A stretch of DNA of 57,344 bases, from contig DYAA01000106.1 in NCBI GenBank assembly GCA_019419405.1, forward strand, positions 1 to 57,344. The letters are read 5' to 3'. Under the pieces are notes generated by a model, which worked only from the letters and a program-made list of their open reading frames with translations, did no database searches and was not told the origin of the DNA. Below, one piece after another: positions 22,414 through 29,211 of the stretch. The stretch's first letter is position 1. Each line of letters begins with the position of its first letter. The translations under genes and the position numbers were made by a program. The stretch is from Collinsella sp. (lineage in GTDB: Bacteria > Actinomycetota > Coriobacteriia > Coriobacteriales > Coriobacteriaceae).

Positions 22414-23493
22414 CTACTCCCCGTGATGGTGGCCGCAGCAGCACTCGTGGCCGTCGTCATGGCCGTGGCCGCCGCAGCACTCGTGGTCCTCGCCATGGTG
22501 ATGGCCACAGCCGCACTCATGGTCCTCGCCGTGCTCGCCGCAACCGCAACCTTCCTCGTGAGCGCCATGCTCCTCGGGGCGATACTGCGACCAGTCCAGA
22601 CCGGCGGCGATGGCGTCGGCCTCCTCCTTGTAGAGAACCGTGATGGCCTGGGTGCCCAGCTTGGCGCCACCGATGGCGTCGAGCATGTCGTAGAGCGTAA
22701 AAGCGACGTCGGCACCGGGCAGCGCGAGCTCGCGGTCATCGGCGTAAGCGAGCGCCAAGCGCAGGTCCTTAATGAAGTGCTCGACCATAAAGCCGGGCTT
22801 GTAGTCGCCGTCAAGCGCCTTGGGAGCCAGGCTCTCCATGGCGCCGGACTTGCCGGTACCGCCCAGGATCATCTGGCGGGTCTTCTCCAGGTCAAGGCCG
22901 CTCAGCTCGGCAAATGCCATGGCGTCTGCCATGCCGACCATGCAGGCGCCCAGCGACACCTGGTTGGCGAGCTTGGCAGCCTGGCCCTTGCCGGCGCCGT
23001 CGAAGCAGCAGATGTTGGCCGCAAAGGTGGCAAGGATGTCGCGGACCGGCGCGATGTCGTTCTCGGTAGCGCCCACGATAGCCGTGAGCGTACCGGCGAT
23101 AGCGCCCGACTCGCCGCCGGTGACGGGGCAGTCAAACGCCATGCGGCCGGAAACCTGGGCGGCCTCGGCAATGTCGCGCGCCAGCTCGGGCGAGCTTGTG
23201 GTGAGGTCGATCAGGACCGCGCCGGGCTTAGTGCACGCGAGCAGGCCGTCGCCCGCCAGGTAGAGCTCCTCGACCTCGGAGGGATAACCCACCATGGTAA
23301 AGACGACGTCGGCGTTCGCCACGGCATCTGCCGGCGTATCGGCCCAAACGGCACCGCGCTCGATAAGCGCGACGGCCTTGGACTTGGTACGGTTGTTGAC
23401 CGTGACGGGATAGCCGGCATCCAGGATGTGGCCGGCGATGGGGGCACCCATGATTCCGGTGCCGATGAATGCGACAGAGAGCTTGTTTGCCAT
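22414..23493 (-). CDS. NAD(P)-dependent 3-hydroxyisobutyrate/2-hydroxy-3-oxopropionate reductase family, with His/Cys-rich tail
   Basis: FIGTGIMG, DCPVTGG, GQAAKLANQ, F.VEHFIKDL motifs. Confidence 0.92.
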   Translation of the reverse strand: MANKLSVAFIGTGIMGAPIAGHILDAGYPVTVNNRTKSKAVALIERGAVWADTPADAVANADVVFTMVGYPSEVEELYLAGDGLLACTKPGAVLIDLTTSSPELARDIAEAAQVSGRMAFDCPVTGGESGAIAGTLTAIVGATENDIAPVRDILATFAANICCFDGAGKGQAAKLANQVSLGACMVGMADAMAFAELSGLDLEKTRQMILGGTGKSGAMESLAPKALDGDYKPGFMVEHFIKDLRLALAYADDRELALPGADVAFTLYDMLDAIGGAKLGTQAITVLYKEEADAIAAGLDWSQYRPEEHGAHEEGCGCGEHGEDHECGCGHHHGEDHECCGGHGHDDGHECCCGHHHGE

Positions 23494-24624: not shown

Positions 24625-25209
24625 TTACTCGTCAAGTGTTTCGATGCGGGGCTTGATGATGCCATATCCACCATTCTTACGGTGATACACCACATTGATA
24701 AGGCCGGTCGTCGCGTTCTCGAACACGTAGAAGTCGTGACCGAGCAGATCGGTCTGCACCAGCGCCTGCTCCTCAGTCATCGGAGTGACGTCGATAACCT
24801 TCTCGCGGACGAGCAGGTCGTCTTCCTCCTCGGGCAGCAGCAGGTCGGCCAGATCCTCGACGCGCTCGACCGGTGCGACATCCGCGGCGCTGGCACCACC
24901 CTGGCGGTTGTCCACGACCTTAGTCTTGAACTTGCGCAGCTGGCGGGTAACCTTATCGGCGGAGAGGTCGATGGCGGCATACATATCTGCGCCGTGCTCG
25001 GCAACGCGAATCACAGAGCCGCGGGCACGAACCGTGACCTCGACGATTGCCGGGTTGGGGTTCGAGGGGTTCTTCTCATAACGAAGCACGACGTCGACTG
25101 TCATGGGCTCGATATCGAAAACCTTGAGCGCCTCGCCGATCTTCTCATCCACATGCGCACGCAGAGCATCGGTTACCGTCGTCTTGCGTCCAGAAACCTT
25201 GATATCCAT
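24625..25209 (-). CDS. raiA: Ribosome hibernation promoting factor (long HPF/RaiA)
   Basis: VTDALR.HV.EK, DMYAAID, RQLRKFK, C-domain LLGHDFYVF...VVY.RKNGGYGII. Confidence 0.95.
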   Translation of the reverse strand: MDIKVSGRKTTVTDALRAHVDEKIGEALKVFDIEPMTVDVVLRYEKNPSNPNPAIVEVTVRARGSVIRVAEHGADMYAAIDLSADKVTRQLRKFKTKVVDNRQGGASAADVAPVERVEDLADLLLPEEEDDLLVREKVIDVTPMTEEQALVQTDLLGHDFYVFENATTGLINVVYHRKNGGYGIIKPRIETLDE

Positions 25210-25427: not shown

Positions 25428-25460
25428 AAAAGCCGGGCTCCCCTGTTGGGAGAGCCCGGC
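25428..25460 (-). terminator. Intrinsic terminator after substrate-binding protein gene
   Basis: GCCGGGCTC...GAGCCCGGC hairpin with a minus-strand T run. Confidence 0.75.
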
Positions 25461-25526: not shown

Positions 25527-26552
25527 CTAGCTATTGAGCTTGTTAATGTCGTCGTCGGTGATAGTGTCTTCCTGGCTGGACGATTTGTCTTCGGAGGATG
25601 CGGTCTCATTGTTGGAATCGGAGGACTCGCTGCCGGAGGATGCGGTCTCACTGGACTCAGAGTCGCCCGGCTGCACGTTAGCGCCCGAAACCGTCTTAGT
25701 GGTGAGGTCGTAGGGCATCCTGCCATACCAGACAGAGTGGACCGCCTCGAGCGTGCCGTCGGCCGTAATACCGTCGAGGGCATCGCTCACGGCACGGCAC
25801 AGTTCGTCATTGGACGAGAGGCCCGCAACACCAAGCGTCGAGGGCGCCTCGAGCGAACCGGCATAGGAGACCTCGCTCATCAGGCGTGCAAGGTAGCCGC
25901 CGGCCGTGGAGTCGCAGATTACATAGTCGACCTCGCCGGACTCGAGTGCCTCAAAGCACTCGTTGATGTTGGAGTAGGTCTTTTGGTTGGCGGTGATGCT
26001 CTGCTTAGCAAGCGCCTCCTGCGAGGCCGAGGACATCTGGACACCCAGAGTAGACGTGTTAAGGGTATCGGTGGAAACGCTTAGCGACCCACCATCGCTG
26101 GTTTTACCGAACACGGAAGCGGCATCGTACAGGCAGGTGCCGAGCGAGCTAACGTCCCCATCCGTGGAGTTGATCTCGCCGATAAAGATATCAGCCTTTT
26201 TGTCACCGAGCGCGGAACCTGCCGAGGACGCATCGACAAAGGCGACCTTAAGGCCCATGCGGCTTGCGAGGGCGCGGGCAGCGTCGACTGCATACCCCGT
26301 GAGCTCGCCGTCAGCGCCCTGCATGGCCTGCGGCGCATCGGAGGTATCGAGGGCAACCGTCAGGGTACCGGGGGTGACCAGGGCATCATCCGACACCGCG
26401 GACGTGACGGTCTCGTACTCGATCTGGTCGATCGTGGGAGTCGTGAACGTAGACAGCGGGTTGAACGCGCATCCGCTCAGGCCCAAAACGGCGATGACCG
26501 CTGCGGTCCCAGCACCTAACCGAGCCGCGTGCATCAAGCTGCCCCTCACCAT
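25527..26552 (-). CDS. Amino-acid ABC transporter substrate-binding (PBPb/SBP_bac_3) lipoprotein
   Basis: Lipobox LSGC, GTLTVA, G.LTGY.VD, ALESGEVDYVI, Ser-rich tail. The upstream part of the long ORF call overlaps the ncRNA. Confidence 0.85.
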   Translation of the reverse strand: MVRGSLMHAARLGAGTAAVIAVLGLSGCAFNPLSTFTTPTIDQIEYETVTSAVSDDALVTPGTLTVALDTSDAPQAMQGADGELTGYAVDAARALASRMGLKVAFVDASSAGSALGDKKADIFIGEINSTDGDVSSLGTCLYDAASVFGKTSDGGSLSVSTDTLNTSTLGVQMSSASQEALAKQSITANQKTYSNINECFEALESGEVDYVICDSTAGGYLARLMSEVSYAGSLEAPSTLGVAGLSSNDELCRAVSDALDGITADGTLEAVHSVWYGRMPYDLTTKTVSGANVQPGDSESSETASSGSESSDSNNETASSEDKSSSQEDTITDDDINKLNS

Positions 26553-26611
26553 GTCCACTACCCTGCCTTCTGTGTCGTATACGATCCGTGCGTTGCACGA
26601 AATATCAGATT

Positions 26612-26876
26612 GTTCCCACCAGCTGACCTGGTATTTGACCCCACACTTGCGCACCGGGGTGTTTGCTCGGGAGGCCGCAGCCACCTTCACGACTGGCCCG
26701 CTCGCCCGCGAGGCGGTATTGCCCCAAAGAAAGTAGAACGGACGGTGCGGCTTACATCTAGGACGCGCCATGATCGCGCCGCGCGCACGCGGTCGCTTAC
26801 GTGGATCCCTTTGACCGCGTCTGTCTTGGACTAGGACGGGCATTTCGTCCGTCCGCAACCACAGCCTGGTAGGAAC
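26612..26876 (-). ncRNA. raiA-motif structured non-coding RNA (~265 nt)
   Basis: The minus strand has paired ends (GUUCCUACCAGGCUG / CAGCUGGUGGGAAC). It carries blocks I recognise from raiA-motif RNAs: UGUGGUUG, GAUCCACGUAAG, CAUGG.GCG..CUAGA.GUAAG, AGUGUGGGGUCAAA.ACCAGGUCA. Context is comFC - RNA - PBPb - raiA. Confidence 0.88.
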
Positions 26877-26883
26877 GTAGCGC

Positions 26884-26915
26884 ATTATAGCTAAGTTCAA
26901 GCTAAAGTTTAAGGT
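26884..26915 (-). promoter_or_regulatory. Sigma70-type promoter of the raiA-motif RNA
   Basis: Perfect TATAAT at 26889-26884, 7 nt before the RNA 5' end, with a TTAAAC -35-like hexamer upstream. Confidence 0.75.
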
Positions 26916-26984
26916 TAGGGGCGTCATTCGCATCGCGAGTACAGATTTCGCAGGTCGGAGTGGGCTATTCGTGCCTCTGTGAAG

Positions 26985-27032
26985 CCCGGAGCTCCCCTAT
27001 GGGGAGCTCCGGGGCACCCTTCCTAGGGTGCC
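26985..27032. repeat. Two abutting perfect hairpins
   Basis: CCCGGAGCTCCCC-tat-GGGGAGCTCCGGG followed by GGCACCCT-tcct-AGGGTGCC. Confidence 0.85.
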
Positions 27033-27033
27033 G

Positions 27034-27250
27034 TGGCCAAAAAATGGCAGATATGAGTACTGTCACCAATTTAGTAACAGGCAATTTTGGCCTCTCGGAC
27101 AGATTTTGCGCTCAATGTCGCTAACCTGATGCTTAGTTATTCCACATTTGTTTATTATCTTCTTACTTTATGCCGCCTCCGAGTCCTAAATTCCTTGATT
27201 TTGCTGTTACTGATTTAGTGACAGTACTCATATTTGCCATATTTTGGCCA
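27034..27250. repeat. MITE-like element, copy 1 (47-bp terminal inverted repeats)
   Basis: 27034-27080 and 27204-27250 are inverted repeats matching at 42/47 positions, around an AT-rich non-coding core. Confidence 0.85.
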
Positions 27251-27284
27251 GGGCATATGATTAACCCCCTATTTTCGACGTGAA

Positions 27285-28394
27285 TTAGACCGGCTTAAGC
27301 CCAAAACACGCCCGCAGCGTGTTAAGCAACGCCTCTTGCTTCTTCCTGCGGGCATCGACACGATTCCGGTACCGCTTTCGCATACGCTGGTGGATGCGCC
27401 ATGCGAGCGCTTCCATCGCTTCCATGTCGCAGAGCATTTCGTTGTTGACCGTCGCGACCTCGATTCCCATAGTAATCAAGCCCGTGTTGCGTTTTTCATC
27501 ATGGATACGTCCCCTCCGGGAGGAATGGCCCAGCTCACCGTTGTATTCAAGGTCAAACCGGGCTGCTTCCTGATACGCATCGCAAACTGCATGCGGCATC
27601 CCCGAGATTGCCTGCGCGCGGTCATCGAACTCGATCTTGTAGTCGGTCTTAAAGGGACCGCAGTCAAATCCGCCATAGGAAAACGGAAGCGAAAACAGAG
27701 CGAGCATGATGCACTCCATGGGCGAGAGCAGGTTTTCTGACAGGTAGGGACACAGACGCAGCAGCTGTTTGGCCACATTCCCCTTGCATGCCGCAAGGTA
27801 ATCTGCCAGGCGATCGGGCGTCAGCGCCGGCTCGACTTCAAAGTAGCCCACGTCTGCTGGCTGGTCCTTGTCCTTTGCAAGTTTATTCGTAACAGGCGAG
27901 GTGTAGGGAGGCAGATACTTCCCGCGGTCGCTCAGTGAAATCTTAGAGCACAGCTCCTGGGCCAGGGCAAATGCCTGGATACAGCCAAGTTCGCGCGCAA
28001 CGGCAAGGCAGAGGGCCTCGGGAGACAAGCTGTACACCCCCGGTTCCACCTCTAGAATCGAGCCGGCGGGCAACCCGGAACACACGGACCAGCCTACGCT
28101 AGGCATGCGGCGGCGCTGCGCCGCAGATCCCACCAGCAAGCACAAATCCTCTTGCACCTCGCCGCTTGCGGCTCCAATTCGCACCAAGTCGGGAAGATAG
28201 ATGTCCTCGGTCGAGGGCGACGACGTGCGCAGCACACGGCGCTCTTCATCGGGATTGAGGTCCTTCCAGCTGATATAGCCCATCTGCCGGCGCTCGGCGC
28301 GCATCATGCGCAGCGCTGAAGCGCCTGTTAGGATTACGGAAGCCGCTAGCTGTTCGCCTGTCGGCTCGTTGCGCCGCTCAATCTTCACTGCCAC
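27285..28394 (-). CDS. Hypothetical protein with C-terminal PD-(D/E)XK / DUF559-Vsr-like nuclease domain
   Basis: SPMEC...LP..YGG, then CD.Y......LEYNG..GH.......D..RN..L..MG..V..V, the pattern of actinobacterial AbiEi-like/DUF559 proteins. GTG start is uncertain (28388 or 28394). Confidence 0.72.
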   Translation of the reverse strand: MAVKIERRNEPTGEQLAASVILTGASALRMMRAERRQMGYISWKDLNPDEERRVLRTSSPSTEDIYLPDLVRIGAASGEVQEDLCLLVGSAAQRRRMPSVGWSVCSGLPAGSILEVEPGVYSLSPEALCLAVARELGCIQAFALAQELCSKISLSDRGKYLPPYTSPVTNKLAKDKDQPADVGYFEVEPALTPDRLADYLAACKGNVAKQLLRLCPYLSENLLSPMECIMLALFSLPFSYGGFDCGPFKTDYKIEFDDRAQAISGMPHAVCDAYQEAARFDLEYNGELGHSSRRGRIHDEKRNTGLITMGIEVATVNNEMLCDMEAMEALAWRIHQRMRKRYRNRVDARRKKQEALLNTLRACFGLKPV

Positions 28395-28404
28395 AAAACC
28401 ACCC

Positions 28405-29211
28405 CTACCAAACACGTGCGATAGCGAGGCCATCAACGGCCGCGGCACCGGCGCGCTTGAGTTCCGCCGAAGCCGCTGCCATCGTCGCACCCGTGGTGAT
28501 AACGTCGTCGATAAGCAGCAGGCGGCGGCCCCGCACGTCCTCAACGGTCTCGTACATGCCTCGGACGCGTTCACGGCGTTCTTCACGGCCGAGTTCACGC
28601 TGGTCGCCATGGCCGTATTTAACGAGGGCGTCGAGCAACGGAACACCCGACAGCTCGCAAAATGGGCGCGCGATGGCCTCCATATGATCGAAGCCGCGTC
28701 GCCGAAACGCCGCCGCAGTCGCGGGCACAAACACCACCGCATCGGCGCCGGACAACACACCGCCTAAGCGTTCGGGCGCCGCGACCTGGGCATGTAAGGC
28801 GGTGTCGTATAGCAGCTCTGCCAGATACGGCGCCAGGCGTCGCTCGCCCGCGTCTTTGTACGCTTTAATGATCCGCGGCAGCGGATGCGCGTAAACGGCA
28901 CATGCCAGGCACCGGTCGAGTGCTTCGGCCATCGCCGAGGACGAACCCTCGACCGAGCACTCGGTGCACAGCAAGTCTCCAAACGGGGCGCCGCATCGAG
29001 TGCAGCTATGCCGCGGGTCGATGAGCGCAAGCGCCGCCAAGCAGTCTTGGCAAATAAGCGCGCCGGAGCGCTCGCAGCCGGCGCATCGCGTAGGCGACAA
29101 CGCCTCAAGCGCCTCGTACGCCGCCAGCTCGGCAAACGGTAGCAATTCGTCCGCAAACGGCAGGATGCCGGCACCTTGCAGGCATCCCAACACATTCAAA
29201 TATCTCTTCAC
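28405..29211 (-). CDS. comFC: ComF family protein (double zinc ribbon + PRTase)
   Basis: CAGC..CQDC..CTRCG..CTEC, RRRGFDH, LLIDDVITTGATM. The true start is probably somewhat downstream. Confidence 0.92.
   Translation of the reverse strand: MKRYLNVLGCLQGAGILPFADELLPFAELAAYEALEALSPTRCAGCERSGALICQDCLAALALIDPRHSCTRCGAPFGDLLCTECSVEGSSSAMAEALDRCLACAVYAHPLPRIIKAYKDAGERRLAPYLAELLYDTALHAQVAAPERLGGVLSGADAVVFVPATAAAFRRRGFDHMEAIARPFCELSGVPLLDALVKYGHGDQRELGREERRERVRGMYETVEDVRGRRLLLIDDVITTGATMAAASAELKRAGAAAVDGLAIARVW

Follow-up and report, generated by a model that had tools for sequence, protein, structure and literature searches.

We consider it virtually certain that this Collinsella sp. genome carries, on the minus strand of the 57,344-nt stretch analyzed here (the window), a genuine and full-length raiA-motif (ModT) RNA that is an ordinary member of a known family. 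The first-pass annotation had recognized the family from its known traits and expected a strong hit of the Rfam raiA model at about 26612-26876 on the minus strand. That search returned RF03072 at 26614-26874 (145.9 bits; gathering score, 101.3; E 3e-36), with model positions 1 to 209 of 209 covered, as the sole Rfam match in the whole window. The RNA extends from 26876 to 26612 (265 nt), its ends pairing as an 11-bp helix (26876-26866 with 26622-26612), and both family blocks (GAUCCACGUAAG and GUGUGGGGUCAAAUACCAGGUCA) are present in it. The raiA-motif identity is thus borne out by the covariance model and by covariation among relatives.

Family membership and anatomy

The case for an RNA had also been built on complementary ends and several internal hairpins. 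The closing helix stands, but the hairpins alone are at chance level: the minimum free energy (MFE) of this GC-rich sequence has a z score of -0.91, and 42 of 200 shuffled sequences fold equally well. Since the MFE is unremarkable against shuffles, hairpins by themselves are not evidence, and folding energy was dropped as an argument; the support for the RNA is the covariance model together with covariation. Nor should the MFE fold be taken for the native one, since the phylogenetic nested structure reaches -85 kcal/mol versus -110 for the MFE.

Using the numbering of Ns-raiA, the solved example from Nocardioides sp. Iso805N (PDB 9E74; PMC12968392), we could place every element of the family, namely P1a/b/c, P2, P3a/b, P4, P5, PK1, PK2, the linker, and P6 to P8 (Table 1). 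All pairs of the core helices P1a-b-c, P3a/b, P4, P5, and P6 are canonical in the window. The linker reads CUAGAUGUAA, with close variants in 82 of 82 parsed cores.

Table 1. Features at the raiA RNA locus, in coordinates of the window
Feature	Position	Strand	Basis or remark
raiA-motif (ModT) RNA, P2+P7/P8 subtype	26612..26876	-	Rfam match 26614-26874, stems, covariation
P1 5' strand	26855..26876	-	P1a 26876-26866, single-G bulge 26865, P1b, P1c; partner strand 26632-26612
P2 hairpin, optional subtype element	26834..26854	-	Parsing and alignment of relatives
P3a/P3b core, PK1 loop (26821-26816), P4 5' strand (26804-26801)	26801..26831	-	Parsing
PK2 5' strand, PK1 3' strand, linker	26752..26771	-	Numbering mapped from PMC12968392
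PK1 3' strand	26762..26767	-	Six Watson-Crick pairs
Conserved single-stranded linker	26752..26761	-	
P6, P7, P8	26650..26749	-	P7 with pyrimidine-rich bulge 26738-26726 and distal hairpin
P4 3' strand and PK2 linker	26633..26644	-	Parsing
-10 box TATAAT	26884..26889	-	7 nt ahead of first paired base
Imperfect direct/palindromic repeat	26890..26914	-	Abuts the -10 box upstream; once in genome
Spurious 5' extension of lipoprotein ORF through RNA and promoter	26553..26933	-	Frame breaks in relatives
SBP_bac_3 (PBPb) lipoprotein gene	25527..26552	-	True start ~26552-26558, ~60 nt after the RNA
Intrinsic-terminator-like hairpin after lipoprotein gene	25432..25460	-	First terminator downstream of the RNA promoter
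hpf/raiA, long ribosome hibernation factor	24625..25209	-	Own terminator 24595-24569
Polymorphic 1.4-kb insert between comF and RNA promoter	26959..28352	-	Not part of the RNA
comF(C) gene	28405..29211	-	Upstream of the RNA

For comparison, 90 loci were gathered, comprising 30 relatives and 60 of the 146 matches in the order Coriobacteriales, the latter chosen across genera and irrespective of their neighbors. An initial pattern parser took 75 of the 90; 14 of the 15 missed loci belong to family f3 and have an A-U pair in P1c, and their later inclusion gave 89 parsed loci with 82 distinct cores, one locus (L087) staying unparsed and outside the counts. In these cores, 2124 of 2132 core pairs are canonical, a figure to be read in the light of the search pattern, which fixes some letters. 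Two-sided changes occur in P1c (G-C in 68 cores, A-U in 14), in PK1 (C-G in 54 and U-A in 26; C-G in 69 and A-U in 13), and in PK2 (U-A in 69 and C-G in 9, the other 4 of the 82 having C-A).

Because the pattern fixes some letters, pairing was recounted independently on a plain MAFFT alignment of 70 sequences, from which 19 near-identical loci and L087 were excluded; the results are counts rather than probabilities, the related sequences being non-independent. Pairing in PK1 is complete (100%), and 41 of its changes are two-sided, compared with 0 when the register is slid. The corresponding figures are 100% and 36 (at most 9 when slid) for P7, 92% and 31 (at most 3) for P6, and 93% and 119 (at most 34) for P2. 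The P8 base is 99% paired. The distal P7 hairpin is 51% paired at register 0 and 74% at +1, where the alignment register slips, and the order-level P1a is shifted in this alignment by the bulge indel. Compensatory pairs are present in PK1, PK2, P1c, P2, P6, and P7, and the RNA core is almost invariant across the order.

Several peripheral traits were observed along the way. Family f3 loci (e.g., L065, L068, and L069) carry the compensatory change from G-C to A-U in the highly conserved P1c in 14 of 16 cases, and their P8-region hairpins are shorter. Two loci, L061 and L078, have very long P2 inserts of 71 and 86 nt. The unpaired pyrimidine-rich stretch of P7 (26726-26738, minus strand) is loosely kept in family f1 and forms a second single-stranded surface beside the linker. 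Over the 90 loci of the order, pyrimidines make up 93% of the 7 nt that open P1a, although the sequence itself varies, and the 3' strand is accordingly Shine-Dalgarno (SD)-like, a strand bias. An anti-SD switch operated by the 5' strand of P1a was considered and dropped, the P1a 3' strand probably being the nearer and better partner.

The peripheral stems had been described as expanded, a description that does not hold, since the combination of P2 and P7/P8 is a published subtype and the length of 261 nt lies near the median of the rest of the order. P2 is found in 42% and P7/P8 in 68% of known raiA members, and the solved Nocardioides example, which has both, measures 253 nt (PMC12968392). 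Among 75 parsed sequences (range, 220 to 321 nt), the median is 261 nt in family f1 versus 253 nt in the rest of the order, and P2 is present in all 75.

The locus RNA shares with the raiA/ModT family (RF03072; PMC5737381, PMC10861870, PMC11706538) the P1 to P8 helices, PK1, PK2, the linker, the single copy, a housekeeping-type -10 box, and a comF gene upstream with PBP and hpf/raiA genes downstream. It has no intrinsic terminator after P1 (C. difficile has one, C. acetobutylicum has none), and it also differs in the 1.4-kb insert that its clade carries between comF and the promoter. Ns-raiA is of the same subtype (253 versus 261 to 265 nt) and, mapping by position from the published text, has in common with the locus RNA the U19-G20-C21/U59-A60 junction at P1c-P2, the six-pair PK1, the purine-rich P3 internal loop, and the long P7. 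The two differ in the bulge (G alone versus GU), in the PK2 pair (U-A versus C-G), and in the linker, which in Ns-raiA is UUAGA(C/A)GUAA. OLE, ROOL, and GOLLD are likewise large and highly structured orphan RNAs, but they belong to other Rfam families without a match here and form multimers, unlike the monomeric raiA RNA (Kretsch 2025, PMC12286853).

Promoter, transcription unit, and neighbors

A perfect TATAAT just upstream had been taken as a sign of independent transcription. The window contains 4 copies of this hexamer and the 1.99-Mb genome 87, corresponding to about 2e-4 for a 10-position slot, and its position is conserved, with a TAnnnT site 5 to 13 nt before the Rfam start in 88 of 90 loci. 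A promoter of its own is supported for the RNA, and transcription likely starts at A26878 or G26876. An extended -10 is usual in relatives, its T occurring in 51 and its G in 57 of the 60 distinct sites; the clade of the locus carries AG where most relatives have TG. A sigma-70 scan of the window did not list this promoter, and no good -35 box was seen on reading the sequence.

Upstream, the repeat abutting the -10 box is kept in the close clade, which is the clade that has lost the extended -10 TG, and recurs in a similar form in L041; it is a possible activator or repressor site. Of 19 assessable near-identical loci, 18 carry the 1.4-kb insert, and L019 cleanly lacks it; it was not found in the other loci and looks like a small mobile unit. 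Its gene encodes a hypothetical protein (about 370 aa) that neither Pfam nor NCBIfam matches and that has two distant paralogues in the host genome; the Atlas places it in clusters of hypothetical proteins from Actinomycetota, in one of which 16% of the members contain DUF559. Inside the insert lies a pair of 52-bp inverted repeats (27029-27080 and 27204-27255; 88% complementary, with an AT-rich 123-nt spacer), whose arms have relatives at 9 other places of the host genome, mostly paired, and which is possibly a MITE- or REP-like family, perhaps tied to the insert gene. The insert also contains a perfect 13-bp hairpin (26985-27013), whose sequence resembles that of the terminator at 25460-25432 and which may insulate the RNA promoter from read-through.

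A 468-aa open reading frame (26933-25527, minus strand) runs through the RNA, and the first-pass annotation had called its 5' part spurious. Were the stretch the real N-terminal coding part of this protein, the RNA match would be incidental; the frame is open from 26933 and stays open in 18 of 20 loci that are at least 95% identical. However, it is broken in the other 2 close loci and open in just 4 of 68 diverged ones (2 loci being unscorable), its ATG precedes the -10 box, a signal peptide and a lipobox-like motif follow the start at 26552, and base changes in the stretch preserve base pairs. The frame breaks already refute this explanation, to which we assign a negligible probability.

The RNA lies near comFC, PBP, and hpf/raiA genes, as the family leads one to expect. 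The comF/hpf neighborhood is conserved even where the RNA is absent (Soares 2024, PMC10861870), so the neighborhood is weak evidence on function. The lipoprotein gene and the terminator at 25460-25432 stand between the RNA and hpf/raiA, and the earlier argument against a simple cis-riboswitch for raiA is supported. Between the RNA and the lipoprotein gene, in turn, we found neither a terminator nor a second promoter-like site; therefore, any cis role would concern the lipoprotein gene. The independent transcription mentioned above stands as far as the promoter goes, but the same finding makes cotranscription followed by processing likelier than a discrete unit. We think that the RNA is probably cotranscribed with the lipoprotein gene, which may still have a weak or alternative-sigma promoter of its own. 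A promoter-like site exceeded the threshold in 0 of 69 spacers, versus 56 of 64 upstream regions, a partly circular comparison, as the matrix was trained on upstream sites. Four family f5 loci with long spacers have an extended -10-like site there, which is below the threshold in the 3 that were scored. Reads from two wastewater runs, whose type as RNA was guessed, fall in 28 and 24 of 30 bins at similarly low depth, intergenic stretches and the insert included, a DNA-like pattern that speaks neither for nor against expression; two further RNA runs yielded no reads on the stretch.

Of 89 assessable loci, 88 have the lipoprotein gene downstream of the RNA (86 identified by tblastn and 2 as ORFs), with a median spacer of about 54 nt and at most 100 nt in 81 of 88, the start-codon calls being heuristic and some of them wrong. 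Among the 16 loci of family f3, 13 have comF in the opposite orientation and none has hpf in the fetched flank, yet the lipoprotein gene stays; the RNA-lipoprotein link outlasts the comF and hpf links. This raises the question of whether in Coriobacteriales the RNA is also, or mainly, a cis leader governing read-through, stability, or translation of the lipoprotein mRNA, a role in line with the cis-regulatory type under which Rfam files RF03072 and with the PBP association noted at the discovery of these RNAs (Weinberg 2017, PMC5737381). The tight link fits a cis role and a trans role equally well. Speaking against the former, we found no conserved expression platform in the form of a terminator or an SD-sequestering stem: one of the 90 loci has a terminator-like hairpin after the RNA, and spacers vary in length and sequence. 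The lipoprotein gene has its own SD-like site in the spacers inspected, and L061 has lost the gene but kept the RNA, which there directly precedes hpf. Family-wide, neighbor distance and orientation vary, the knockout left flanking mRNAs unchanged (PMC10861870), and in vitro tests of small-molecule binding described with the discovery were negative (PMC5737381). A cis leader thus appears fairly improbable to us.

The best solved relatives of the lipoprotein are amino-acid-binding proteins (E 5e-19), although all of its matches are far under the NCBIfam cutoffs. In such proteins, the Arg of a T-x-E-R motif binds the ligand carboxylate. In the alignment to solved relatives, this position is Asp in the lipoprotein, and no conserved Arg was seen in the T-x-E-R stretch of 58 aligned downstream proteins, 2 or 3 of which are apparently in the wrong frame. 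Going by sequence, a standard amino acid is probably not what the lipoprotein binds, if it binds a ligand at all. Farther along the minus strand, at 22414-23493, a gene of the 3-hydroxyacid dehydrogenase family (Pfam NAD_binding_2/11) ends in a His/Cys/Glu-rich repeat tail that is possibly metal binding.

Distribution and the bulge variant

All 30 relatives and 146 of the 149 Coriobacteriales genomes carry a single raiA RNA; it was found in none of 14 control genomes, and no match occurred among 50,697 phage records. The three genomes lacking it may reflect assembly gaps. In one (G042), about 250 nt separate the end of the lipoprotein match from a contig end; G087 has no lipoprotein match, and G117 has distant ones only. 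No truncated RNA was found in any of the three.

The GU bulge between P1a and P1b is described as highly conserved, its G10 making a base triple (PMC12968392). Here the G is kept and the U is absent. This G-only bulge is found in 38 of 38 family f1 loci versus 4 of 51 other loci of the order. The published alignment of Soares et al. contains 201 G-only rows, versus 1218 with GU, before the same motif, as well as rows that share the 5' end and the P2 start of the locus RNA and 3 truncated rows that start exactly like it; as its rows are accessions only, the variant was counted by motif, and a name search for "Collinsella" or "Coriobacteri" in the supplements gave 0 hits. The missing U does not exclude membership, since the same variant was accepted in the defining alignment.

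When named genomes were scanned, the variant turned up in at least 116 stretches, and 71 of the 80 among the matches listed are labeled Collinsella, in keeping with the lineage Coriobacteriia proposed from sequence. Six others among these 80 are Enorma, Limicola, Coprousia, and unnamed family members, which we take to be Coriobacteriaceae; 3 bear further labels. The G-only bulge is a true lineage mark. We found no paper that discusses it, and the supplements of He 2026 may treat bulge variants.

Possible functions of the RNA

That raiA RNAs have no established biochemical function, as previously stated, still holds, but knockout phenotypes, trans complementation, and cryo-EM structures have since been published. 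In C. acetobutylicum, the raiA RNA is the fourth most abundant besides rRNA and tRNA; its knockout lowers sporulation and aggregation, and a plasmid copy rescues the mutant (PMC10861870). In C. difficile, its loss delays the transition to stationary phase and raises c-di-GMP, again with rescue in trans (Lence 2024, PMC11706538). Both species with knockout data are spore-forming Clostridia (PMC10861870; PMC11706538). In the literature searched, no paper testing the raiA RNA in Coriobacteriia was found, and supplements may hold more. The Collinsella host is not known to encode a sporulation program.

With a little better than even confidence, we favor a single-copy, vertically inherited, and abundant housekeeping-type RNA that acts in trans, is bound by protein, and tunes the growth-to-stationary-phase switch. 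Action in trans is in itself quite likely, and we lean slightly toward a protein-bound scaffold rather than a catalyst. The RNA would be made as the 5' part of an RNA-plus-lipoprotein transcript of about 1.45 kb ending near 25432, from which a species of about 265 nt might be released through cleavage together with trimming of the 3' end as far as P1a or, alternatively, through Rho-dependent termination. Such a primary transcript is compatible with a discrete mature RNA, since C. acetobutylicum makes a single discrete species with no predicted intrinsic terminator (PMC11706538). Published work on Clostridia describes a rigid double-pseudoknot core from which the P1 arm protrudes. On the folded RNA, P1 and the conserved single-stranded linker may be presented for binding by a partner, conceivably KhpA/KhpB-type proteins or a translation or RNA-processing factor. 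The raiA RNA binds KhpA-KhpB with a Kd of ~2 uM, both being nonspecific RNA binders (He 2026, PMC12968392), and Lence et al. state that binding of ModT to KhpB or Hfq was not seen in their earlier analyses (PMC11706538). The host genome encodes KhpA, Rho, and a KhpB-like protein with KH and R3H domains (R3H as read from sequence) and no Jag_N match. The tuning of the stationary switch would operate separately from sporulation and cyclic dinucleotides and upstream of both.

Soares et al. proposed from the single copy and the more than 50 highly conserved nucleotides that the RNA is a ribozyme (PMC10861870). It would then act in trans, like RNase P, on one invariant substrate with proteins as accessories, which agrees with the increase of tRNA and 5S levels in the C. 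difficile mutant (PMC11706538) and with the nearly invariant core across Coriobacteriales. The portions of the Soares report considered here mention no activity and state that self-processing was not seen in vitro (PMC10861870), and the results and discussion of He et al. describe no active site (PMC12968392). We regard catalysis as a doubtful, albeit serious, contender.

A receptor or an enzyme of cyclic-dinucleotide signaling was also suggested by Soares et al. (PMC10861870), and the c-di-GMP rise explains the sporulation defect of the C. difficile mutant (PMC11706538). The host genome has 8 GGDEF matches and 1 DAC match. However, the fold is unlike that of c-di-GMP riboswitches (PMC12968392), and the distribution of cyclases in the order does not follow that of the RNA: GGDEF matches occur in 86 and DAC matches in 84 of 149 genomes, and among the 146 RNA-bearing genomes, 60 are without GGDEF, 63 without DAC, and 19 without both, counts that stand for the absence of a match to these two cyclase domains only and come from non-independent kin. 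One of the RNA-bearing genomes with neither match (G032) is a single contig that is 99% complete. The DAC domain has no match in families f3 (0 of 32 genomes) and f5 (0 of 9), and GGDEF ranges from 0 to at least 22 matches within the order. Owing to the 19 RNA-bearing genomes with neither match, the conserved job is unlikely to be the handling of c-di-GMP or c-di-AMP, and we give this receptor or enzyme little credence. No paper comparing the range of the raiA RNA with cyclase genes was found, and supplements may do so.

The family, the subtype, the neighborhood, and the sequence variant of the clade are all already in print or in a published alignment; the locus by itself brings nothing new, and its value is comparative. 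Beyond the preferred trans-acting RNA, a bolder and unlikely idea is that the Coriobacteriales RNA is necessarily made as the leader of the mRNA of an orphan, degenerate substrate-binding lipoprotein, one that lacks a conserved carboxylate-binding Arg, and that both form one functional module, in which an abundant cytoplasmic RNA would be dosed with an envelope sensor and kept in cyclase-free genomes of 1.2 to 2 Mb. If this were true, the core job would be envelope or nutrient sensing coupled to translation, the clostridial effects on sporulation and c-di-GMP would be secondary, and the G-only bulge would be a natural variant showing that the near-invariant U is dispensable. The terminator-free lipoprotein link and the one-base bulge offer cheap natural tests of how the 3' end forms and of which P1 contacts matter. 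Finally, the near universality of the RNA (146 of 149 genomes), while cyclases come and go, narrows the range of its likely functions.
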